17,665 nucleotides of DNA from Candidatus Undinarchaeota archaeon. Lineage in GTDB: Archaea > Undinarchaeota > Undinarchaeia > Undinarchaeales > UBA543. Below the pieces are notes generated by a model that ran no database searches, was not told the origin of the DNA, and was given only the letters and a program-made list of their open reading frames with translations. Shown here piece by piece: positions 1-14,150 of the stretch. The first letter of the stretch is position 1, and the number at the start of each line of letters is the position of its first letter. The stretch covers positions 1 through 17,665 of the forward strand of contig CAZWSR010000013.1 of assembly GCA_964636545.1 (NCBI GenBank), in the 5' to 3' direction. A program made the translations under genes and the position numbers.

Positions 1-748
<748 letters not shown>

Positions 749-1033: not shown

Positions 1034-1163
1034 TGGTGCGGGAGACAGGATTTGAACCTGCGAAGACACTAAGTCATTGGATTTCTTAATCATCGAGCAC
1101 TGAGCTCTCAGCACTCAAGATCACTCTTGAGTCCAACCCATTTGACCACTTTGGTACTCCCGC
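1034..1163 (-). tRNA. tRNA-Leu(CAA) with 43-nt intron at 37/38 (1083-1125); CCA encoded
   Basis: Acceptor GCGGGAG/CTCCCGC-ACCA; anticodon arm TTGGA-CT-CAA-G^A-TCCAA after intron removal; long variable arm; T-loop GGTTCAAATCC; 87 nt mature. Confidence 0.93.
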
Positions 1164-1321: not shown

Positions 1322-1392
1322 TTGTTTTTGGTCACCACCTGCCATAACAACCTTTAAATACTATACTAAATTCAATCTAGTGGGGAACGCAA

Positions 1393-1968
1393 ATGGGAAT
1401 GATAAAATATTACCATAAAGAGTGGAAGCCAACACTATACAACATATTCACTCCTTTAATGAAAGCAATTGGTGGATTGGGAATAAAACCAAACCACTTA
1501 ACAGCTATGCAGTTCCCGTTTTCAGCAGCAATGTGCGTGTCTCTTATTTATGGAAAAGTAAGTATTGCAATACTTTGCATGGTTTTTGCACTTATGCTAG
1601 ATGGCATGGACGGACTGCTTGCAAGATCAACAAATCAAGAAACAAGGCGAGGACATGTATTTGACAAGTCTGCAGATATTTTCGGGATAGTGATGATGCT
1701 TGTTGGAATTGCAATTGGTTTTCCAGGGTCGCTAGGCCTATGTGTTTCACTAGGCGTGATTAATATAATGCTTTATGTTACAAACGAGATCAAGGAACCG
1801 TTCTTCTACACAGCTGCGAGAGATGCTGGGGTTATAGGACTTTTAGGATTCACTTTAATGGGAAATATAATGTTCTTGAATGCTTGGCTGTTTATATCAA
1901 TAAGTATTGGAACCTTCTTGTTTTTGAAAAAGAGCATGGTGCTTTTGGGTGATTTGGGATTGAGGTAA
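1393..1968 (+). CDS. CDP-alcohol phosphatidyltransferase family protein
   Basis: Signature D-G-x-D-G-x-x-A-R-x7-G-x3-D-x3-D (LDGMDGLLARSTNQETRRGHVFDKSAD); N-terminal GIKPNHLT; hydrophobic helices. Confidence 0.9.
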   Translation: MGMIKYYHKEWKPTLYNIFTPLMKAIGGLGIKPNHLTAMQFPFSAAMCVSLIYGKVSIAILCMVFALMLDGMDGLLARSTNQETRRGHVFDKSADIFGIVMMLVGIAIGFPGSLGLCVSLGVINIMLYVTNEIKEPFFYTAARDAGVIGLLGFTLMGNIMFLNAWLFISISIGTFLFLKKSMVLLGDLGLR

Positions 1969-4506: not shown

Positions 4507-5460
4507 ATGCAGAAAATAACTTCACTAGATGCAAAGGACAAACGATTGCTTGCAGAGCTTGATAATAATAGTAGGGCTAGTTTGTCTGAGCTTGCAAAAA
4601 AAATAAAGCTATCAAGAGAGGCTGTAAACTACAGGATAAAACGGTTGCGGTATAGTGGTTTGATAAAAAAATTCGTAACACATATTGACTACACAAAATT
4701 AGGGAAAAACATCTACACATTATATTTTAAATTCGGAACAGTGAGTGAAAGGAAAGAAAAAGAGGTTATAGATTATTTGAGAAATAATCAAGATACAAAC
4801 TGGTCAGCACAAGTAGGCGGTAGATTGGATTTCATTTTGGAATTTCCAGTAAAAAGTACGCGCGAGTTCAGGAAAAAACAAACAAATATTGTGAGCAAAT
4901 ATCCAGAGGTTCTGGTTCACCACGAAGTTGGAATAAATACATTTCAACAGAGATTGAACAGACGATATTTGTACGATATACCTAGCAAGATAGGGAGCCC
5001 AACAGAAGAAACAATAAATATTGATAAAAAAGACCTAGCAATTATTGAAGTATTAAAAAAGAATTCTAGAACTTCAACTACAGAAATAGCAAGACAAGTA
5101 AAACTTCCAACAAGTACTGTTGCAAATAGGATAAAAGAACTGAAAGAAAATGGAGTGATAATGGGCTTTTCAGTTCAGATGGACATATCAAAATTTGACT
5201 ATCATAGTTTTAAAGCCTTTATAAAAATGTCAAATTTTTCAGAAGAAATAGATAAAAAAATAAAAATGTTTTGTGAGCAAAACCCGAATGTAGTGTACTT
5301 CCTAAGTAGTGTAGGGAGATGGGATTATGAAGTTGATATTGATGCAGAAAGTCATGAGCAATATAGAAAAATTTTAAGACAATTTAAGAACCTTATGGGA
5401 AAGGATGTAGCAGAAGTTGAAACACTTGAAATATTTAGTTCTTACAGATTTACATACTAA
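4507..5460 (+). CDS. Lrp/AsnC family regulator with two tandem HTH-RAM repeats
   Basis: Two HTH units (LDAKDKRLLAELDNNSRASLSELAKK; IDKKDLAIIEVLKKNSRTSTTEIARQ), each followed by a RAM-like part (VGGRLDF; VGRWDYEV). Confidence 0.9.
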   Translation: MQKITSLDAKDKRLLAELDNNSRASLSELAKKIKLSREAVNYRIKRLRYSGLIKKFVTHIDYTKLGKNIYTLYFKFGTVSERKEKEVIDYLRNNQDTNWSAQVGGRLDFILEFPVKSTREFRKKQTNIVSKYPEVLVHHEVGINTFQQRLNRRYLYDIPSKIGSPTEETINIDKKDLAIIEVLKKNSRTSTTEIARQVKLPTSTVANRIKELKENGVIMGFSVQMDISKFDYHSFKAFIKMSNFSEEIDKKIKMFCEQNPNVVYFLSSVGRWDYEVDIDAESHEQYRKILRQFKNLMGKDVAEVETLEIFSSYRFTY

Positions 5461-5515: not shown

Positions 5516-7189
5516 ATGCAAGAATTAGATAAGATACTGAAGCCAGACAGTGTAGAATTTATGCAAGATTATATGAATGTTAGTGGAGAACTTGCAAGAA
5601 TTTTAATGGCAATTGGCTATCCAAGAGAAGTAAATGAAGGATTTATGGATAGAATAATCAGGAGCAGGGCTGCTTTTGACATTTCAATACACATAACTCC
5701 GTCTTCAATTGATTCAACAATTGTGAATTTAAATAAACTACTTAGGAAACTTAATGCTGACAAATATTCTGCAGAGAAAAAAGGAGTTTACACTCCATCA
5801 ATTGATTTACTAATGCAAGATACTAGAAAAGTTTTAGAAGAAATACAAGCAGGCAAGGAAAAAATATTCAAAACCAGTTTTTACATAAGTGCGAAAGCAT
5901 TTGACAAGAAAAATCTCGATACTTTGACAAGAAAAGCAGAATCAAAACTAAATTCAATAATGATAGTTCCAAAAAAACCAGTTTTCAGAATGCGAGAAGG
6001 TTTTCAAAGCATGCTTCCGCTAGCAGATGACTTACTAAAACAGCAAAGAACACTCACAACTTCTGCACTAAGTGCTTGTTTCCCATTTACTTCATCATTT
6101 CTTGAGACAGACAAAAATGGCGTAATGCTTGCAACTAACAAAAACAATGGAATACCGATTATCAGAGATGTTTTCAAGTTGACAAATCCGAATTCGTTGG
6201 TGTTGGGAACTTCTGGAGCGGGGAAAAGTTTTTGCTGTAAATTAATTTTCTTGCGATCATATATGGCAGGGGCTCGTGTTTTTGTTGTTGATCCGCAAGC
6301 AGAATATCTGGATTTAACAAGAGAACTAGAAGGACAAATTATTGAAATTTCAAAAGAGTCCAAGACAATAATTAATCCATTGGATTTGATGGAACAGGAT
6401 TTTGCCAGCAAGCGGTTGTCCTTGATGTCTGCTTACAAACTAATGTTTCCTGAAATGAGTACTCAGCAGTTGGCAGTTTTGGATAAAGCAACTGGAAAAG
6501 CATATGCAAACAAAGGAATTAATGAAAATAAAGAAACTTGGAAAAACCAAATGCCTGTGATGAAAGATGTTTTAAAAAATATTACAGAAAAAGAAATTGA
6601 AACTCAATTAGAACAATATGTGACTGGAGCATATTCATTTTTGAATAAACAAACAAAACTTGATTTAACTAGAGAATTCATTTGTTTTAATATTAAAGAA
6701 ATGCCAACTGCTGTTAAACCACTAATGTCTTATTTGATTTTGGAATATTTGCACTCCACAATGCAGAATGACCACAGGAGGAAGGTTCTTGCAATTGACG
6801 AAGCTTGGTCGCTATTAAGGCATGCAGGTTCTTCAGATTATTTATTCAAAATTGTCAAGACCTGCAGGAAATTCAATATGTCCTTATTTTTGATAACGCA
6901 AGAAGTTAATGACTTGATTGGAAAGGAAGCAGGTAAAGCAGTTCTCGCCAATACAAGTTGCAAATATTTGTTAAAACAGGACAGCAGTGTAATTGAGAAA
7001 CTTGCTGAAACAATGGGACTAACACACGAGGAAAAGGATATTTTAACAAGAAGCTCGGTTGGAGAAGGTTTGCTTGCAGTAGATGGAGAACGATTTCCAA
7101 TGAAAATAATTGCATCTGAGCAAGAAACTGACTTGATTACTACAAATGCAGATGAACTGAACAGGAGAAAAAATGAAAGACAAAATTGA
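5516..7189 (+). CDS. VirB4/TraC-like ATPase (FtsK-HerA superfamily)
   Basis: Walker A GTSGAGKS, VVDPQAEY, INPLD, Walker B IDEAW, RKFNMSLFLITQ, GEGLL. The N-terminal GYPREV...GF and DISIHI segments resemble conjugative VirB4. Confidence 0.85.
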   Translation: MQELDKILKPDSVEFMQDYMNVSGELARILMAIGYPREVNEGFMDRIIRSRAAFDISIHITPSSIDSTIVNLNKLLRKLNADKYSAEKKGVYTPSIDLLMQDTRKVLEEIQAGKEKIFKTSFYISAKAFDKKNLDTLTRKAESKLNSIMIVPKKPVFRMREGFQSMLPLADDLLKQQRTLTTSALSACFPFTSSFLETDKNGVMLATNKNNGIPIIRDVFKLTNPNSLVLGTSGAGKSFCCKLIFLRSYMAGARVFVVDPQAEYLDLTRELEGQIIEISKESKTIINPLDLMEQDFASKRLSLMSAYKLMFPEMSTQQLAVLDKATGKAYANKGINENKETWKNQMPVMKDVLKNITEKEIETQLEQYVTGAYSFLNKQTKLDLTREFICFNIKEMPTAVKPLMSYLILEYLHSTMQNDHRRKVLAIDEAWSLLRHAGSSDYLFKIVKTCRKFNMSLFLITQEVNDLIGKEAGKAVLANTSCKYLLKQDSSVIEKLAETMGLTHEEKDILTRSSVGEGLLAVDGERFPMKIIASEQETDLITTNADELNRRKNERQN

Positions 7190-7463
7190 TTTGAATTACG
7201 CAAAAGCAGTAGCAAGAGAAGTTTCAATGAGTTTTCCAAAAACAAAAGAAGAGCGGATTATTGTTATGCAGAAGATTGGGAAGGCGCTGCAGGATACACA
7301 TGGAAGTTTTTTTCTAGATCAGGTTTATGATGTTCTGGAATTGGTTTATGAAATTGAAGAACGGGATGAGTTAATGGATGAAATAGATGGTTGGGTTGAG
7401 AATGATGAGAAGATTGAGCAACTTGGTAATGAAAATAGAGTTTATACATATAGAATAGAATAA
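7173..7463 (+). CDS. Small acidic hypothetical protein, overlapping the virB4-like stop
   Basis: 96-aa ORF with AGGAG upstream, overlapping the previous gene by 17 nt; no recognised motif. Confidence 0.6.
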   Translation: MKDKIDLNYAKAVAREVSMSFPKTKEERIIVMQKIGKALQDTHGSFFLDQVYDVLELVYEIEERDELMDEIDGWVENDEKIEQLGNENRVYTYRIE

Positions 7464-7576
7464 TGGGCCCGCCGGAATTTGAATCCAGGACCTCACGCTC
7501 TCTCGAGCGCGTCCGTAGTTTTGTACGGAACGCAACCATATAAGGCGTGCGCACCACCAGACTATGCTACGGGCCC
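7464..7576 (-). tRNA. tRNA-Ile(TAT) with 39-nt intron at 37/38 (7500-7538)
   Basis: Acceptor GGGCCCG/CGGGCCC-A; D stem GCAT/GTGC; anticodon arm CACGC-CT-TAT-A^A-GCGTG; T arm CTGGA-TTCAAAT-TCCGG; intron hairpin TCCGTA/TACGGA; 74 nt mature without CCA. Confidence 0.92.
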
Positions 7577-10498
7577 AGTTTTATTAAATCCAATACTGAT
7601 TTTGATTCCTTCAAACTCCAGTTCAGATTTTTCTTTTGCTTTTGTCTCATCACCTACTTTTAATTCTTTTGCTCCGACTTTTTGAGTAATCTCTTTTGCA
7701 AACCGGTTAACTGCATTCTTTGCAAAGTCATCTGATGTTGAGACAATTAATTTAATTTGCTCGCCAACTTTAAGGCCAGCTTTCTTCCGCATTACTTGCA
7801 CTTGTCGCATTACTTCTCTTGATAGTGCTTCTTCCTTAATGTCTTGAGTCATTTTTGTGTCAAGATAGATTTTTCCAAATTCAAATTCTTTTTCAACACC
7901 TGCTAGTTTTCCTGAGTTCAATGATTTCACATTTGCTTGCTCTAAAATAACATTTTCAAATGTCTTGAGTGCTTTCTTTACCGTGTCGTCGCCATCCACA
8001 GCAAGCTGTTTAAGTGGCCAACGGAGTTTGATTTTTGCTTCTTCTCTTGCAAATCTAGCAGTTTCCACAATCATTCGCGCATTGCACATTTGCTTTTCAA
8101 ATTCTGGATTGACAAGTTTTGTATTTGGTTTTGGCCAGTCAAGCAAATGAATTGATTCTGGTAAACTTTTTGAAAGTGGTTTGATTATGTTGAGATAAAT
8201 TTCCTCAGACATCATTGGCAAAAGCGGTGCTGAAAGTACAAGGAAGGTTTTCAAAGATTCATAAAGAACCTTGAATGCAACAAGCTTGTCGGCGCCTGTT
8301 GCAGAAACCCAAGTTCTGTCTCTGATAAGTTTGACATACCAGCGTGACAAGTCCTCAACAAGGAATTCATGCAAAAGTTTTGGAACTTGAGGGAATTCAT
8401 AATCCTCAAATGCCTGTGTAAGCTTCTGGTTTAGTGAATTTACTCTTGAAAAAATCCATTTATCTTCTGGTTTTAGTTTTTTCAAGTCAAGTTTGTATTC
8501 TTCAGGATTAAATCCAGCTTCGTCCATGTATTTTGTGAATTTTGCAACATTCCAGAGAATATTAAGTGCTTTGTAAGACTCTTTTAGATTTTCCCAGTTG
8601 AAACGCATGTCCTCGCCATTAGCTGCCCCACCAATTGAGTAGAACCTCCAAGCTTCTGAGCCAACTTTTTCAATAACTTCTTCGGGTGCTGTAACATTTC
8701 CAAGTGATTTTGACATTTTCAAACCTTTATCATCAACAACAAAGCCGTGCATGTATACGCTTTTGTAAGAAGATTTTCCATGTGAAAGCATACTCAAACA
8801 CATAAGTGAATTAAACCATCCGCGAATCTGATCCTTGCCTTCTGTAATAAATTCACAAGGGAACCATTTGTCAAGCTCGGTTTTCTTTTCTGGGAACGGA
8901 AGTGTTGCCCATGGAGCTGCTCCAGAGTCGAGCCAGACATCAAGAATATCTGGAATTCGAGTCATTTCTTTTCCACAATCCTTGCATTTGAATTTGATTT
9001 TGTCAATCCATGGCCTGTGTAAATCTTTAACTTCTTTTGGAAGCTCGCTCCTACTCCCAATAACTTTCAAGTGACCATTTTCACAACGCCAAATCGGGAG
9101 AGGAATTCCCCAGAAACGCTGACGGGAAATACACCAATCCTGAAGATTTTCAAGCCAGTCTCGGAACCATCGTTCTCCAGCCCAGTCTGGAACCCACTTG
9201 ATTTTCTTGTTTTCCTCAATCATTTTTTCCTTGAGGTCAGTAACTTTAAGATACCAATTTGGAGCTGCTCTGAAAATAACAGGAGATTTGCAACGCCAGC
9301 AGTGTGCATACTCGTGGTCAATATCTGCTTCACGAGCTAGCAAACCTTTGTCTTTTACAAATCCAATGAATTTTTTATTGTCCTTGCTAGCGTTTAGGCC
9401 AGCGTATGGTCCAGCTTCTTCTGTGAAATTTCCACCTTCATCCACTAATGAAAATGCAGGAATATCCATTTTTCTGCCAACTTCAAAATCCTCAGCACCG
9501 CAACCAGGAGCACAATGAACACATCCAGAACCAGCTGAAAGAGTCACGAAACCGTGGAACATATCATCGCCAACTGGCTGAACAGTAAATGCATTTGGAT
9601 GTTTTTTCCTAATTTCTTTAAGTGCAGGAATGTCTTCTTCAAATGGTTGAATATATTCAAGTCCTTTCAAATCTTCTCCGCGAATTGTTTCAAGAAGTTC
9701 GTATTTTTGATCCATTATTCCAAGAAGCGCAATTACAAAGTTTTTTGCAAGAATCCATTTCTCTTTTCCAACTTTGATCTTAGCATATTCAAAATCAGGA
9801 TGAACCGCTACCATTTGATTAAATGGAAGTGTCCAAGGAGTTGTTGTCCAAATTAAGATGTATTCATCTTTCTTTCCCTTAAGTGGAAATTTGACATAAA
9901 TAGAAGTGTCTTTTCGGTTTTTGTATTCTAATTCGTGTTTTGCAAGAGCAGTTGCGCATCGCCAGCACCAAGTAATTGATTTTGGACCTTCGTAAAGTAG
10001 GCCTTTTTTGTGCGCTTCAGCAAGTGCCCACCAAGCACCTTCAATATAAGAATTATCAATTGTCCGGTATGGCTTTTCCCAATCCATCCAAACACCAAGT
10101 CGAGCGAACTGCTTATTCATTTGATCAAGATTATCAAGACCGAACTTTCTACACTCTTCAATAAACTTATCCATACCAATTTTTTCAAAAATCTCTTGTT
10201 TATTCTTGATTCCGAGCTTTTCCTCTACCTTTACTTCAATTGGAAGGCCGTGCATGTCGTATCCTGGCTGTGTGCGCACATTGTAGCCCTGCATACGCTT
10301 GTAACGCAGGAACATGTCTTTCATGACCTTGTTCCATGCAGTTCCGAGGTGGATTGAACCAGTTGTGTAAGGAGGACCATCAATAAATCGGAATCTATCT
10401 GCTTTTTCAGTTTTTTTCTTGCATTTAGCAAATGTTTTCTTAGAATCCCAGTGCTTCAGGATTTTTTCCTCGATTTTTTGTGGGTTGAATTTATCCAT
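7562..10498 (-). CDS. ileS: Isoleucine--tRNA ligase (archaeal/eukaryote-like type)
   Basis: DGPPYTTGSIHLGTA (HIGH), WTTTPWTLP, DWCISRQRFWGIPLP, EGKDQIRGWF, KMSKS. Confidence 0.97.
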   Translation of the reverse strand: MDKFNPQKIEEKILKHWDSKKTFAKCKKKTEKADRFRFIDGPPYTTGSIHLGTAWNKVMKDMFLRYKRMQGYNVRTQPGYDMHGLPIEVKVEEKLGIKNKQEIFEKIGMDKFIEECRKFGLDNLDQMNKQFARLGVWMDWEKPYRTIDNSYIEGAWWALAEAHKKGLLYEGPKSITWCWRCATALAKHELEYKNRKDTSIYVKFPLKGKKDEYILIWTTTPWTLPFNQMVAVHPDFEYAKIKVGKEKWILAKNFVIALLGIMDQKYELLETIRGEDLKGLEYIQPFEEDIPALKEIRKKHPNAFTVQPVGDDMFHGFVTLSAGSGCVHCAPGCGAEDFEVGRKMDIPAFSLVDEGGNFTEEAGPYAGLNASKDNKKFIGFVKDKGLLAREADIDHEYAHCWRCKSPVIFRAAPNWYLKVTDLKEKMIEENKKIKWVPDWAGERWFRDWLENLQDWCISRQRFWGIPLPIWRCENGHLKVIGSRSELPKEVKDLHRPWIDKIKFKCKDCGKEMTRIPDILDVWLDSGAAPWATLPFPEKKTELDKWFPCEFITEGKDQIRGWFNSLMCLSMLSHGKSSYKSVYMHGFVVDDKGLKMSKSLGNVTAPEEVIEKVGSEAWRFYSIGGAANGEDMRFNWENLKESYKALNILWNVAKFTKYMDEAGFNPEEYKLDLKKLKPEDKWIFSRVNSLNQKLTQAFEDYEFPQVPKLLHEFLVEDLSRWYVKLIRDRTWVSATGADKLVAFKVLYESLKTFLVLSAPLLPMMSEEIYLNIIKPLSKSLPESIHLLDWPKPNTKLVNPEFEKQMCNARMIVETARFAREEAKIKLRWPLKQLAVDGDDTVKKALKTFENVILEQANVKSLNSGKLAGVEKEFEFGKIYLDTKMTQDIKEEALSREVMRQVQVMRKKAGLKVGEQIKLIVSTSDDFAKNAVNRFAKEITQKVGAKELKVGDETKAKEKSELEFEGIKISIGFNKTGPVA

Positions 10499-10521
10499 TG
10501 TTTTCGACTCTGTTTTTTGAA

Positions 10522-10531
10522 TTTATATATA
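10522..10531 (-). promoter_or_regulatory. Candidate proximal TATA box of ileS
   Basis: GGGAAG-TATATATAAA ending 23 nt before the ileS ATG, the same spacing seen for other genes in this window. Confidence 0.5.
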
Positions 10532-10534
10532 CTT

Positions 10535-10612
10535 CCCAGTGCCCCCGGAAATTTTTGAAAAGGAGCACAGGGTTTTCACTAGAATTATCGTATTATTATG
10601 ATAATGCTAGTG
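10535..10612 (-). promoter_or_regulatory. Structured ileS leader: two tandem hairpins (10577-10612 and 10535-10572)
   Basis: CACTAG-C-ATTATC...GATAAT-T-CTAGTG, and CCC-T-GTGCTCC...GGGGCAC-T-GGG. Confidence 0.65.
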
Positions 10613-10623
10613 TCTGTGTTCAT
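10585..10623 (-). CDS. Putative isoleucine leader peptide MNTDTSIIIIIR upstream of ileS
   Basis: ATG AAC ACA GAC ACT AGC ATT ATC ATA ATA ATA CGA TAA, on the same strand as ileS, ending 86 nt before its ATG. TATTTAAA box 23 nt upstream of the ATG. Confidence 0.8.
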   Translation of the reverse strand: MNTDTSIIIIIR

Positions 10624-10646
10624 TGAATTTAACCTAACAGTGTCTG

Positions 10647-10654
10647 TTTAAATA
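10647..10654 (-). promoter_or_regulatory. TATA box for the leader-peptide transcript (leaderless start)
   Basis: AATAAAG-TATTTAAA ending 23 nt before the leader ATG. Confidence 0.6.
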
Positions 10655-10709
10655 CTTTATTATAGGATTAGAGAAAAGTTTAAATAAACTTGAGGAGTAA
10701 TTGATTAAA

Positions 10710-11177
10710 ATGAGAAAGAAAACAAATATTCAGTTTGATGAGAAAAATGAAAGAAAAATACAAGCATCAGAGATGATAAAAAATCTTAGAGTTATAATTG
10801 ATGATGATCTTGAGGAAATTATGGAAATGGAAAATGAAGCAGATCATCTTGATGGAGCAATAGACACAGCAGATACAAAATTAGCAAATCTTAGTGGAGA
10901 ATTATTGAAAATTAAAAAGAGAGTTGAGTTGTTTAAAAAAGAAAATATTACAGAAATTATGGATGACATGATAGAAGACGCTGAAGAAGGTTTGGAGGAA
11001 GTTAGGGGTTTAGCTAGTACACAGGATTTTGAGGGGGCTGTTTTAAAAGCAAAAAAGACTTTAAAGAAAATTGATAAACAGTTGGGTGGCCGCAATAAGA
11101 GTCTTAGAAATATAGTAATAGGTATAGAACAATATAGAGAGGCAGGCGAAGATCATCCATTAAACAAAAACCACTGA
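10710..11177 (+). CDS. Hypothetical charged, helical/coiled-coil protein
   Basis: E/K/D-rich ORF. GAAAAG-TTTAAATA (10679-10686) lies 23 nt before ATG 10710; TTG 10701 with GAGGAG is an alternative start. Confidence 0.7.
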   Translation: MRKKTNIQFDEKNERKIQASEMIKNLRVIIDDDLEEIMEMENEADHLDGAIDTADTKLANLSGELLKIKKRVELFKKENITEIMDDMIEDAEEGLEEVRGLASTQDFEGAVLKAKKTLKKIDKQLGGRNKSLRNIVIGIEQYREAGEDHPLNKNH

Positions 11178-11181
11178 TTAT

Positions 11182-12306
11182 CTAATGCATTTTCGCCCTA
11201 GCAATCTGCTCATTCCCTGCAATTCTTTGGATAACTGTTTTGTCTGGATGACTAAAATAACTTACAGCAACTTCATCATACAAGTCAGCAGCGTTTGTAG
11301 AACCGTGTTCTCGCAAATAGTTTGCAAATTCTCTTCTTCCAACACCAAGGTCACCGAAATCTGCAATTGTTTTTGTATTTCGAATATGATTTACTGCACG
11401 CAGTGAAAGTTGTTTGTTCCAAGAAAGTATCTGACTCAAACTCTTACGATCCCCGTTATTTTTTAGACTAATCATCCAAAATGGTCCAAGGTGAGCTCCA
11501 CTAACTCCGCTAGTTGCACCATTTTTCCAAGCAGTTAAGAATTCAACTACTGGTGCTTTGAGTTCTTTTGATCCAGGTTCATTTGGATCCTGAAGATAAA
11601 TGAATTCAGAATCATAGCCAGATACAACAAAGAAGTGAGAGAAGTGGGTTCCATCCTTATTTTCTTCCCAGAAACTTGACTGGTTTGCGAATGTGGTTTC
11701 AAGATAAAATGCATCAACATTAACTTCAACTGGATTTTTATTGCTTATAGCAAGTTTTAGTTGATGAAGTGCCTCGTCTGCATCAGCAACATAAATTATA
11801 TTAGCAGTTGAGTTTTCAAAATTATAATCAAGTATTTTTGAACGAGCAAGACCCTTCTCGCGCAGAACCATGTGAATATCGTAACCAAGATTATCTGCAG
11901 CTTCAATAATTGAGCGCTCTCGGAAATTGTTGTAGAGACCCATTCGTTTGTCATATTTTGCATTTGAACCAACACCAGAATGAGCAATTACATCATAAAA
12001 TTGCAGACTAGAATCATCATAAAGCGTTAGCATTGCAAAGGAACCAAGATAGGAAAGTGCTCGTGCTTCATACCAGGACTCATTATCTTCAGTGAGAAGT
12101 GTTGCCCCAGAATAAACATGAGGAACTTCAAGTTTCATTGAATCAGCAATAAGGACTGTTTCAGATTCTGTAGTTGTTTCAGTATCAGAGACAGCTGTTT
12201 CTTCAGCAGTTTCCCCAATAGTTTCAGAATCTGTTTCTTCTGAAGTACTTACGCATCCGCTAAAAAGAATTACAAAAATCAATAGCAAGAGAACAAACTT
12301 TTTCAT
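11182..12306 (-). CDS. Predicted lipoprotein with C39-peptidase-like (BtrH N-terminal-like) domain
   Basis: Signal peptide with lipobox MKKFVLLLLIFVILFSG-C; T/E/S-rich linker; LEVPHV, GSFAML, PVEVNVDAFYL, HFFVVSGYDSEFIYLQDP resemble the C39-like fold pattern. Confidence 0.65.
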   Translation of the reverse strand: MKKFVLLLLIFVILFSGCVSTSEETDSETIGETAEETAVSDTETTTESETVLIADSMKLEVPHVYSGATLLTEDNESWYEARALSYLGSFAMLTLYDDSSLQFYDVIAHSGVGSNAKYDKRMGLYNNFRERSIIEAADNLGYDIHMVLREKGLARSKILDYNFENSTANIIYVADADEALHQLKLAISNKNPVEVNVDAFYLETTFANQSSFWEENKDGTHFSHFFVVSGYDSEFIYLQDPNEPGSKELKAPVVEFLTAWKNGATSGVSGAHLGPFWMISLKNNGDRKSLSQILSWNKQLSLRAVNHIRNTKTIADFGDLGVGRREFANYLREHGSTNAADLYDEVAVSYFSHPDKTVIQRIAGNEQIARAKMH

Positions 12307-13691
12307 TTTTTAATTTTCCGGTGATATTTCACTTTGAATTTGAGTTCAGTGTGTTTGAATAAGTCAAACCAGCGGTAGAACAACCATCCAAACAAAATCA
12401 GAATCACTCCGCCAAGGATTATCATAATTCCAAGATTTCCAATTAAGAAAATACAGAACAGAATTCCAAGAACAGGAATTATCGGGACTTTTCCAATTTT
12501 TCCAGGAACTCGGAATGGGCGCTTCAAATTCGGTTCTTTAACTCTTAGCCAAATAAGTGCAGCATTGACAGAAATAAATGTCAAGAATATAGCAAGGTTG
12601 GTCATTTCAGCTATCATTCCAATATTATTGCTGAGCAAAAGAATTGATCCAAGAAGACACACTGCAATAATTGCTTTCCAAGGAGTTTTTCTTTTTGAGT
12701 GGATGTGTGATAAGAACGATGGGAGTGAATGCTCGCCACCCATCCCATATGCAATTCTTGAAGCAGCCATAATTGAAACAAGATTAGTGTTGAAAGTTGA
12801 AATCAAAGCAACTATTCCAAGGACAATGAAAATCTTACCACCAAGAACAGTTGCACCAATATCTGCAAGTGGAGCAGCAGAGGCACCTAAAGCTCGCCAG
12901 TCCATAACACTAACAGCAGATAATGAAACAAGTATGTAGAGAATTGTTGTGATTGCTATGGAAAGTATCAGTGCTCTTGGAATCACTTTTTCAGCATTTT
13001 TGGTTTCTTCAGAAAGCTTCACAATGCTTTCAAATCCAATAAATGCAAAGAAAATAAGTGCTGCTGCTGAGAAAATTCCATCGAACCCATTTGGCATTTC
13101 AAAAAAGTTTATTGAGCCAGAAGATACTGCAGAAAAGAAGTGTGGTAGGCCGATGACTATTATGAATATTAATCCACCAACTTCAATTAATGTGAACAAG
13201 AGATTGAGTTTTGTTGATTCGCGTATACCAATATAGTTGATAATTCCAATTGTAACTATCATCAAAAAGGCGATTAGGGTTTTTGGACCACCAAATACAG
13301 CAGAGAAATATCCAGCAAAACCAATAGCAATAGCCGTGACAGCAATGACTGTTGCTGACAGAACTAGCCACCCAACAAAGAACGCCATTTTCTTTCCAAA
13401 AGCAGATTCAGCATAAACATATTCGCCAGCATCTGAAGGAAATGCAGAAGATAACTCAGCATAACTTAGACCAGACAAAATAGCAACAGCAGAACTTAGA
13501 ATTAATGCAAGCCATAATGAATTTCCAGCCATCCCAGCTGCAACACCAACAAGTGCATAGATTCCTGCACCAGAGATAATTCCAACACCACAAGATGTTG
13601 CTTCAAGCAATCCAAGGTTTTTCTTCAGCGTGAGCTTCTTTTTGTCAACAAGTTGCTTGTGATGATGATGTTGTTCTATCTTACCAACCAT
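12303..13691 (-). CDS. APC superfamily amino acid permease
   Basis: LKKNLGL, GIISGAGIY, LSYAELSSAFPSDAGEYVY, FFAFIGFE, EETKNAEKVIPRA, RPFRVP. Start set at ATG 13691 (MVGKIEQ) because the longer ORF overlaps the divergent gene. Confidence 0.93.
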   Translation of the reverse strand: MVGKIEQHHHHKQLVDKKKLTLKKNLGLLEATSCGVGIISGAGIYALVGVAAGMAGNSLWLALILSSAVAILSGLSYAELSSAFPSDAGEYVYAESAFGKKMAFFVGWLVLSATVIAVTAIAIGFAGYFSAVFGGPKTLIAFLMIVTIGIINYIGIRESTKLNLLFTLIEVGGLIFIIVIGLPHFFSAVSSGSINFFEMPNGFDGIFSAAALIFFAFIGFESIVKLSEETKNAEKVIPRALILSIAITTILYILVSLSAVSVMDWRALGASAAPLADIGATVLGGKIFIVLGIVALISTFNTNLVSIMAASRIAYGMGGEHSLPSFLSHIHSKRKTPWKAIIAVCLLGSILLLSNNIGMIAEMTNLAIFLTFISVNAALIWLRVKEPNLKRPFRVPGKIGKVPIIPVLGILFCIFLIGNLGIMIILGGVILILFGWLFYRWFDLFKHTELKFKVKYHRKIKK

Positions 13692-13751
13692 GAAAATGAG
13701 TATGAAACAGAGGTATTTAAAGATTATAGTTGGGGCAAAAGAATAAATAGT

Positions 13752-14150
13752 ATGAAAGAGAATTTGCATAACATGGGAAGGGAAAATGACAGAGTTGGAC
13801 ATTTAGAGAAGGAACTAAAGTCAGAAATTGATCCAGAGAAAATGCTGAGGCTGATTTTTGAGTTTATTAATTTCAAGCGCGCTAATACAGATATTTATTT
13901 TATGTTAAACAACAGTAAAAGACCAATGACTGTAAATGATTTGTGTAAAGAATTGCCATATTCGGAAAGGACATTGCGGACATATTTGGGAATGTTGACA
14001 GACAAACAGTATGTCAAGAAAGTACCTTGCATACGAGACCGACCTTGCTTTGCTTACAAAACAATACCACCATCAGAAGTTTGGGGATTAATGGTTGAAG
14101 AAATGCGTAGGATTAAGAGAGAAGCTAGCAAGTCACTGGGCGAGTTTTAG
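13752..14150 (+). CDS. Winged-helix HTH transcriptional regulator (TrmB/ArsR/MarR-like)
   Basis: IYFMLNNSKRPMTVNDLCKELPYSERTLRTYLGMLTDKQYVKK...RPCFAYKTIPPSEV. Start is 13752 or 13773. Confidence 0.8.
   Translation: MKENLHNMGRENDRVGHLEKELKSEIDPEKMLRLIFEFINFKRANTDIYFMLNNSKRPMTVNDLCKELPYSERTLRTYLGMLTDKQYVKKVPCIRDRPCFAYKTIPPSEVWGLMVEEMRRIKREASKSLGEF

Follow-up and report, generated by a model that had tools for sequence, protein, structure and literature searches.

A candidate leader-peptide attenuator rich in AUA codons upstream of linked ileS and tRNA-Ile(UAU) genes in Undinarchaeota

The ileS locus and its leader

The window analyzed here, a stretch of 17,665 nucleotides (nt) corresponding to contig C13 of a Candidatus Undinarchaeota genome (G000; 840 kb in 39 contigs, 83% complete, ∼37% G+C), carries on its minus strand a compact isoleucine module in which a short upstream open reading frame (uORF) rich in isoleucine codons is followed by ileS, the gene for isoleucine–tRNA ligase (IleRS), and by a gene for tRNA-Ile(UAU). 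In the direction of transcription the module comprises a leader TATA box, the uORF, hairpin P1, segment C with TTTT, hairpin P2, a proximal TATA-like box, ileS, and the tRNA gene. A fragment of an archaeal 16S rRNA gene is present on the same contig. The initial annotation of this DNA described the uORF, ileS, and the tRNA as co-oriented, and all three do lie on the minus strand, as does every feature of the module described below.

The ileS gene (7562..10498) encodes a protein of 978 aa whose residues 3–841 match family TIGR00392 with E = 6e-279 and a score of 927.8 bits (cut-off 621.4). The tRNA-Ile(UAU) gene (7464..7576) consists of a 5′ exon (7576..7539) that includes the anticodon (7542..7540), a 39-nt intron after position 37 (7538..7500), and a 3′ exon (7499..7464), with no encoded CCA. 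It is called by ARAGORN with introns allowed and by the Rfam tRNA model (RF00005), with a score of 49.8 bits against a gathering threshold of 29 when only 7400–10760 is scanned; default ARAGORN and a gathering-threshold Rfam scan of the whole window both miss it because of the intron. The bulge-helix-bulge motif of the intron appears relaxed rather than canonical in RNAfold output. The initial annotation reported no gap between ileS and the tRNA; the two are contiguous as it described, but the statement falls short of the actual arrangement, in which reading frame and tRNA gene overlap by 15 nt (7562..7576), so that the final four sense codons of ileS and its TAG stop codon (7564..7562) fall within the acceptor and D-arm region of the tRNA gene.

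The leader promoter is represented by a TATA box, TATTTAAA (10647..10654), whose 3′ end precedes the ATG of the uORF by 23 nt. The uORF (10585..10623) has 12 codons and a TAA stop codon, reads ATG AAC ACA GAC ACT AGC ATT ATC ATA ATA ATA CGA TAA, and would encode the peptide MNTDTSIIIIIR. Its five isoleucine codons are consecutive (10605..10591), and the three at 10599..10591 are ATA, in agreement with the count of three in five given by the initial annotation. The first uORF codons contain segment A, GAACACAG (10614..10621), the 5′ arm of a predicted outer helix A:C; this helix encloses hairpin P1 (CACTAG.ATTATC / GATAAT.CTAGTG; 10577..10612), a hairpin whose loop contains the three ATA codons and whose 3′ arm takes in the stop codon of the uORF. 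Segment C, CCCTGTGCTCC (10562..10572), can serve as 3′ arm in helix A:C or as 5′ arm in hairpin P2 (10572..10535). The T-rich tract TTTTCAAAAATTT (10549..10561), whose TTTT begins 1 nt past helix A:C, forms the loop of P2 and is the candidate site of attenuation by termination. Segment D, GGGGGCACTGGG (10535..10546), is the 3′ arm of P2 and contains a core, GGGGCAC, that is invariant in 9 leaders. The proximal TATA-like box, TATATATAAA (10522..10531), is located 23 nt upstream of the ileS ATG and is a possible second promoter, which would yield a leaderless ileS mRNA.

Conservation, codon choice and gene linkage

Loci containing ileS were sought in G000 and 40 relatives; IleRS was found in 41 of 41 genomes, and 30 loci were compared. 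The module was found in a clade of 10 genomes of marine DPANN archaea, from four families (f1–f4) of one order, with IleRS sequences 60–90% identical (90% and 83% for G001 and G002, which belong to the same genus as G000). An Ile-rich uORF is found at the matching place in all nine loci with intact upstream sequence, and the tenth, MVYTAGIIIAIGIAA in genome G007, was located independently by a covariance model built from the P2 region only. The synteny survey proposed by the initial annotation therefore turned out in its favor, leader and linked tRNA each being present in 10 of 10 genomes. The uORF peptides diverge (for example, MNTDTQIIIIIR, MSTISGIISIIIRE, MARTASIIIVIGIVA, and that of G007), and their isoleucine content and frame are kept. 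Of the 17 genomes of the phylum, 10 contain a single match to the covariance model of the P2 region (R1), in each case upstream of ileS, and the other seven contain none. No uORF with an isoleucine run occurs within 350 nt of ileS in 20 other archaeal loci, and nothing comparable was found in 14 scanned ileS loci from outside the Undinarchaeota apart from one doubtful 5-codon reading frame, MIIID, in a Candidatus Woesearchaeota locus (L099). The latter is nested at the end of a longer frame ending in LIITSMIIID (1340–1430, plus strand), ∼90 nt ahead of ileS; it has neither the TATA spacing nor the hairpin design of the Undinarchaeota leaders and is probably a chance match. A pattern scan of metagenomes returned 14 loci, four of which encode IleRS and are near-copies of G001, G002, and G003; the other 10 have no IleRS, were set aside as chance matches, and contribute no new leader diversity. 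DNA contigs from four sequencing runs contained only variants that fit the leader of G002.

The 3′ end of a TATA-like box lies 22–25 nt upstream of the uORF ATG in 10 of 10 Ile leaders, a spacing from which transcription is expected to begin at the ATG itself, so that the uORF mRNA would be leaderless. Each of the 10 uORFs contains four to six isoleucine codons, and ATA accounts for 39 of the 49 isoleucine codons in the uORFs versus 54 of 543 in nine ileS reading frames. In G000, ATA makes up 24.5% of isoleucine codons genome-wide and only 2 of 59 in ileS, the sixth lowest share among 197 genes having at least 30 isoleucine codons. Where the ATA codons of the uORF are scattered, in families f2 and f4, all of them are in frame. 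The putative sensor is made of the codon that is read by the linked tRNA, and the ileS message itself avoids that codon. The ATG at the expected start of transcription, the in-frame ATA codons, and the conserved stop codon offer indirect support for translation of the uORF.

In archaea the enzyme TiaS enables a tRNA with a CAU anticodon to read AUA. Searches with TiaS_FLD, which found the family in four model archaea used as controls, gave no match in the 13 genomes of the order and left 16 of the 17 genomes of the phylum without one, and AUA decoding therefore probably rests on the single-copy tRNA-Ile(UAU). Among 41 sampled archaea TiaS_FLD was found in 14 and not found in 27, eleven of which are 94–100% complete, and loss of the agmatidine system thus seems to be common among archaea with small genomes. 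In family f5 and four other genomes of the phylum, BLAST searches with the tRNA-Ile(UAU) gene of G000 recovered only other tRNAs. A proposed link between a short IleRS C-terminus and the absence of TiaS was dropped, there being no clean correlation. A distant archaeon (G037, locus L030) with an IleRS ∼41% identical carries a tRNA-Ile(UAU) gene with a 30-nt intron (oriented coordinates 1192–1296) 165 nt ahead of a co-oriented ileS, with no Ile leader, and TiaS was not found in its genome; linkage of tRNA-Ile(UAU) with ileS therefore recurs in another lineage lacking TiaS.

An intron-containing tRNA-Ile(UAU) gene lies downstream of ileS on the same strand in all 10 genomes of the clade, with one copy per genome. 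In a hand alignment the ten orthologues share an anticodon loop reading CTTATA, then the intron (24–129 nt), then A, and have covarying stems; ARAGORN mislabels seven of them because of the intron. The tRNA abuts ileS in 8 of 10 genomes, the ileS stop codon lying 3–11 nt before the tRNA in six and the two genes overlapping in two, G000 and G001. A stretch of ∼130 nt is inserted between the genes in G004, and a small reading frame separates them in G011 and G003. The inserted stretch in G004 (locus L004, ∼1371–1500, minus strand) ends by repeating the 24-nt sequence that covers the end of ileS and the first bases of the tRNA, as if an element had inserted at the 5′ end of the tRNA and duplicated its target site, and the reading frames inserted in G011 (L005) and G003 (L006) encode CxxC...CxxC, zinc-ribbon-like proteins, with the tRNA starting a few nt after their stop codons. 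Because the stop codon of ileS is inside the tRNA in G000 and G001, the ileS mRNA of these two genomes must run into the tRNA. Runs of T in G001 and G002 occur only after the tRNA. These features, together with the near-abutment seen elsewhere, point to co-transcription of ileS and the tRNA, and they also pose a puzzle, as 5′ processing of the tRNA by RNase P in G000 and G001 would deprive the ileS mRNA of its stop codon.

A different account of the linkage is that the three parts are independent units, with ileS transcribed from the proximal promoter only, the tRNA from its own promoter in the 3′ end of ileS, and the leader as a separate transcript, their proximity being a consequence of compaction. 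These genomes are indeed small and tightly packed, weak TATA-like words precede the tRNA in some of them, and the proximal TATA that the initial annotation had pointed out lies at the right distance (21–26 nt upstream of ileS) to give a leaderless ileS mRNA in 8 of 10 genomes. However, in G003 and G010 the ileS ATG is within ∼20 nt of the GGGGCAC core, leaving no room for a proximal promoter, and in these genomes ileS must therefore be transcribed from the leader promoter, contrary to the possibility raised in the initial annotation that ileS is expressed from the proximal TATA alone. The ileS stop codon inside the tRNA, the enrichment of ATA in the uORF and its avoidance in ileS, the persistence of linkage across four families even past an inserted reading frame, and the match between uORF and cognate genes in a second module (below) are likewise difficult to reconcile with independent units, which we consider quite improbable. 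In the other eight genomes the proximal promoter probably gives a basal, leaderless ileS mRNA.

Predicted alternative leader folds, a cysteine paralogue and the proposed mechanism

In 10 of 10 leaders the predicted fold of the stretch from the uORF ATG up to the U-tract is more stable than those of dinucleotide shuffles (z = −1.7 to −5.4). When the RNA is truncated before segment D, the structure of minimum free energy in all nine leaders folded is helix A:C enclosing P1 and ending at the U-tract, whereas in the full-length RNA segment C re-pairs with segment D in 8 of 9, giving P1 and P2; segment C is able to pair with either A or D in 9 of 10 leaders. Across the seven well-aligned leaders 86.4% of positions assigned to A:C and P1 are paired versus 30–46% in slid controls, and three pairs have changed on both sides, all of them in P1. 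Although the primary sequence of helix A:C differs among the f2 genomes, complementarity is retained in three different versions (GGCACG/CGTGCC, GCACCGC/GCGGTGC, and GGTTTACAC/GTGTAAACC). The version in G007 is its own and measures 9 bp. In 9 of 10 leaders three or more consecutive T begin no more than 3 nt after the helix, and TTTT is invariant in the nine that are aligned. Of 638 genes in G000, 210 have T5 or longer within 100 nt of their ends, and these tracts are not preceded by hairpins; a stable hairpin directly followed by a short T-tract is thus unusual in this genome. Because segment D follows the U-tract, it is unable to serve as a classical antiterminator, and inspection by eye of the sequence downstream of D revealed no partner with a U-tract that could pair with it in the manner of region 4 of a classical attenuator.

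In family f1, where the apical loop of P1 contains three AUA triplets, the leader would also suit direct recognition of the RNA by uncharged tRNA-Ile(UAU), that is, a T-box-like sensor that pairs with an AUA triplet and involves no translation. The f2 leaders have AUA codons spread in frame rather than gathered in one loop, and such a sensor leaves no place for codon runs of four to six, an ATG at the transcription start, or a conserved in-frame stop codon. An Rfam scan of 7400–10760 at E ≤ 1 returned the tRNA and chance-level matches to JA04, snoR25, and mascRNA, far below gathering thresholds, with no T-box or other leader family among them and no family other than tRNA at E < 0.1, and examination by eye revealed no conserved UGGN partner for the NCCA end of a tRNA. 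Recognition of this kind is scarcely plausible here, and we retain a translating ribosome as the putative sensor.

Hairpin P2 is conserved: 93.3% of its cells are paired, five of its 10 pairs never vary, and two pairs have changed on both sides. The unvarying pairs, together with the invariant GGGGCAC at a fixed spacing from the proximal TATA-like RGTMTA, might be expected if the inverted repeat GTGCYCC-N15-GGGGCAC were a DNA operator for a protein such as an Lrp-type regulator, the uORF then having no role in sensing; there is a gene for a tandem Lrp/AsnC regulator at a distance of 5 kb. The repeat is, however, imperfect as DNA and pairs as sense RNA through G-U pairs, columns 13 and 39 being U-G in 7 of 9 leaders, and the outer pairs of P2 covary, with four Watson-Crick types at columns 6 and 46. 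The hairpin of the Cys leader in G007, described below, contains three G-U pairs. Protein control at the level of DNA would, moreover, not account for a conserved ATG where transcription starts, for ATA codons that are in frame, or for the match in amino acid between uORF and genes for both isoleucine and cysteine, and is in our judgment very unlikely.

A second leader of related design is present in G000 on contig C14 (∼11310..10101, minus strand; locus L078), where a TATA box, a uORF encoding M(M)NTDKICCCCCC, a hairpin, and a T-rich motif precede tRNA-Cys(GCA) and a gene for cysteine synthase. The Cys uORF shares its MNTD start and TATA spacing with the Ile uORF, and the hairpin, in which GAACAC is paired with GTGTTC, is followed by a T-rich motif resembling the one in the Ile leader. 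The Cys leader itself occupies 11273..11165. A search pattern based on the MNTD start matched G000 only, since the Cys uORFs of relatives start differently; located through tRNA-Cys, a uORF with four to six Cys codons was present upstream of tRNA-Cys in 9 of 9 loci. On the same strand, the gene next after tRNA-Cys is cysS at six of these loci and that for cysteine synthase at the other three, and the TATA spacing fits in 8 of 9. Across the whole of G000, the only short ATG reading frames outside long ones that have a run of at least four identical residues and a well-placed TATA are the Ile and poly-Cys uORFs, and searches for cognate uORFs upstream of all 43 tRNAs of G000, together with scans for reading frames with residue runs, likewise returned these two only, the remaining short-frame matches being Leu- or Lys-rich and noise-like. 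Since the amino acid of the uORF matches the tRNA and the enzyme in two modules, a role in sensing is far likelier than coincidence, and leaders of cognate codons tied to a tRNA and a synthetase appear from these loci to be a recurring design in the lineage. Two narrower ideas were discarded in the light of the Cys leaders. The suggestion that ATAATAATA is just a TATA box was ruled out, as the paralogous Cys leader has TGT/TGC codons at that place; the P2 loop (TTTTCAAAAATTTC) as a promoter of the downstream gene was not adopted, the distance to tRNA-Cys varying from ∼21 to >100 nt. Between tRNA-Cys and cysteine synthase (∼11040..10990 on the minus strand of C14 in G000; also locus L083 in G011) there is a Shine-Dalgarno-like AGGAG followed by a reading frame of ∼15 codons that ends in LC(R) and a stop codon and overlaps the start region of cysteine synthase, which has a GTG start in G000; this frame may be a second small regulatory frame or the result of a mis-called start.

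Considered together, these results are best accommodated, with moderate confidence, by a ribosome-sensed leader-peptide attenuator, leaderless in its translation, that would control a transcription unit composed of ileS and tRNA-Ile(UAU). Transcription would start at or beside the AUG of the 12-codon uORF, and a ribosome would begin on this 5′-terminal AUG. The uORF is contained in a predicted compound hairpin, with the outer helix A:C placed just before the U-tract and the inner P1 carrying the AUA codons in its loop. With charged tRNA-Ile plentiful, in particular that of the single-copy UAU species, the ribosome would finish and leave, the hairpin would form ahead of the weak U-tract, and most polymerases would stop; with charged tRNA-Ile scarce, the ribosome would stall on the isoleucine (AUA) codons, hold the hairpin open, and allow polymerase to pass the U-tract, after which segment C could pair with segment D to form P2. 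The transcript would then run through ileS into the tRNA, supplying more of the enzyme and more of the sensed tRNA, whereas basal expression of ileS would probably come from the proximal promoter in most genomes. A feedback loop in which one transcript encodes sensor, synthetase, and sensed tRNA had been suggested in the initial annotation; all of the comparative tests favor it and none contradicts it, the single transcript and the sign of the response being deduced from sequence.

The same ribosome-based isoleucine sensor might instead act after transcription, the choice between A:C and P2 altering mRNA stability, processing, or translation of ileS. To our knowledge the use of hairpins in archaeal termination has not been described, and T-tracts in G000 occur without them; P2 is conserved, and pairing within it is thermodynamically the favored choice for segment C in 8 of 9 full-length RNAs; and the proximity of the ileS ATG to the GGGGCAC core in G003 and G010 would suit an effect on translation. 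A precedent acting on translation is the mycobacterial poly-Cys system in the account given in 10.1101/834739. Nevertheless, ileS starts ∼40–110 nt after P2 in 8 of 10 genomes, and a T-tract directly after the hairpin is kept in both types of leader. The Cys paralogue has a tRNA as its first regulated gene, and since a tRNA offers no ribosome-binding site that could be masked, a translational output is unlikely and control of transcription is favored. A post-transcriptional output is accordingly regarded as unlikely, while deserving more weight than the other alternatives, and transcription attenuation remains the preferred reading.

Several observations weigh against attenuation as formulated above. 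Archaeal polymerases are known to terminate at oligo-T and not to need hairpins; given this, and given the T-tracts without hairpins in G000, hairpin-assisted termination is an assumption. In G000 itself the U-tract is only T4, and helix A:C is weak (−7.9 kcal/mol), being equalled or beaten by 7% of shuffles. Helix A:C is invariant across the seven aligned leaders, no pair having changed on both sides, and its covariation rests on the three f2 genomes. The hairpin of G007 ends 6 nt before the U-tract and overlaps P2 by only 2 nt. The hairpins of the Cys leaders are weaker (z = −0.6 to −3.7), and 10% or more of the shuffles match the fold in 4 of 9. The mechanism assigns no role to P2, and its invariant GGGGCAC, which closely precedes the proximal TATA, could act at the level of DNA. 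With a proximal TATA in 8 of 10 genomes, expression of ileS could be largely independent of the leader, and TATA-like words 27–37 nt upstream of the tRNA in some genomes make an internal tRNA promoter possible. No RNA run is listed for 7400–10720, and no 5′ end, 3′ end, or spanning read stands behind any step. Finally, the evidence comes from 10 metagenome-assembled species of one order, and because these genomes are related the counts overstate their independence.

Elsewhere in the window, the archaeal 16S rRNA fragment occupies 1..747 on the minus strand, with an intron-containing tRNA-Leu(CAA) gene (1034..1163, 43-nt intron) ∼290 nt upstream of its 5′ end on the same strand. The protein with two tandem Lrp/AsnC-type modules (4507..5460) and a VirB4/CedB-like ATPase (5516..7189) are encoded on the plus strand, and an amino-acid transporter (12303..13802), whose second-best match is the branched-chain transporter BcaP at a score below the cut-off, on the minus strand.

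Implications and comparison with known systems

The module packs a synthetase, its tRNA, and a putative sensor built from the codon of that tRNA into one unit of a reduced genome. If the proposed mechanism is true, the Ile leader would gauge AUA decoding by the single-copy tRNA-Ile(UAU) that replaces TiaS, and would respond with more of this tRNA and of its charging enzyme; it would also mean that an archaeal RNA polymerase undergoes hairpin-assisted termination at a short U-tract. A broader proposition, which we put forward tentatively and at somewhat less than even weight, is that these organisms possess a DPANN "ribulon" of leaderless leader peptides, for isoleucine and cysteine at least, each co-regulating a synthetase or biosynthetic enzyme together with the cognate tRNA, that it would be the first case of ribosome-mediated transcription attenuation in archaea, and that its Ile member is an AUA-specific homeostat. 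The paired Ile and Cys candidates provide a built-in paralogous control and make control of archaeal transcription by ribosome position testable, as well as the modulation by an RNA hairpin of termination by a polymerase resembling RNA polymerase II and the balance of decoding by tRNA-Ile(UAU) where TiaS is lacking. We know of no demonstrated leader-peptide attenuation in archaea; in full-text literature searching, neither an attenuator of this kind in archaea nor the present module was found to have been described.

Among bacterial systems, leader-peptide attenuation requires coupled transcription and translation and is exemplified by Escherichia coli pheST, with its leader pheM, and by enterobacterial ilvGMEDA and ilvBN. 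The Ile leader resembles these in having a short leader reading frame rich in cognate codons and in the dependence of a hairpin and U-tract on the position of a ribosome, as proposed here, and it resembles pheST further in that the regulated gene encodes an aminoacyl-tRNA synthetase. The pheST and ilv leaders are, however, Shine-Dalgarno-led, four-segment structures in which the terminator lies downstream of the antiterminator, whereas here the uORF is apparently leaderless, the hairpin that encloses it is itself the candidate terminator, and the alternative partner P2 comes after the U-tract; the host is an archaeon whose polymerase is of the RNA polymerase II-like type, and the unit carries the sensed tRNA. 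The T-box (RF00230) found upstream of ileS in Firmicutes and Actinobacteria likewise regulates ileS by the charging state of tRNA-Ile, but it binds the tRNA directly, involves no translation, and has a conserved Stem I and T-box sequence, in contrast to the leader described here.

With regard to AUA decoding, a survey of 167 archaeal genomes reports tRNA-Ile(UAU) only in Korarchaeum and Nanoarchaeum (PMC6000648). The Undinarchaeota module resembles the situation described for Nanoarchaeum equitans and Korarchaeum cryptofilum (PMC6000648) and for Mycoplasma mobile (PMC3575796), in which a UAU tRNA serves AUA and TiaS or TilS is absent, and, as in K. cryptofilum, the gene has an intron (PMC6000648). 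It differs in its linkage to ileS and its codon-matched leader, neither of which is described in the relevant passages of those two reports.

The closest parallel in form is provided by the leaderless poly-Cys small open reading frames of mycobacteria, the "Cys ribulon" (Canestrari et al., 10.1101/834739), in which, in the passages of that report on its mechanism, the output is a sequestered Shine-Dalgarno sequence of the next gene. Both systems would employ a leaderless uORF with a run of one codon in which a stalled ribosome blocks a duplex, and in both several loci share this logic; the Cys paralogue is strikingly similar in form to the mycobacterial frames (10.1101/834739). The uORF segment of the Undinarchaeota leader, however, is predicted to pair with segment C before the U-tract and not with a ribosome-binding site, so that it does not belong with translational attenuators of the mycobacterial type. 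By comparison with the mycobacterial frames as that report portrays them, the leaders described here are followed by a tRNA (Cys) or by a distant start codon (Ile), have a U-tract after the hairpin, are linked to synthetase and tRNA genes and not only to biosynthetic genes, and are archaeal.

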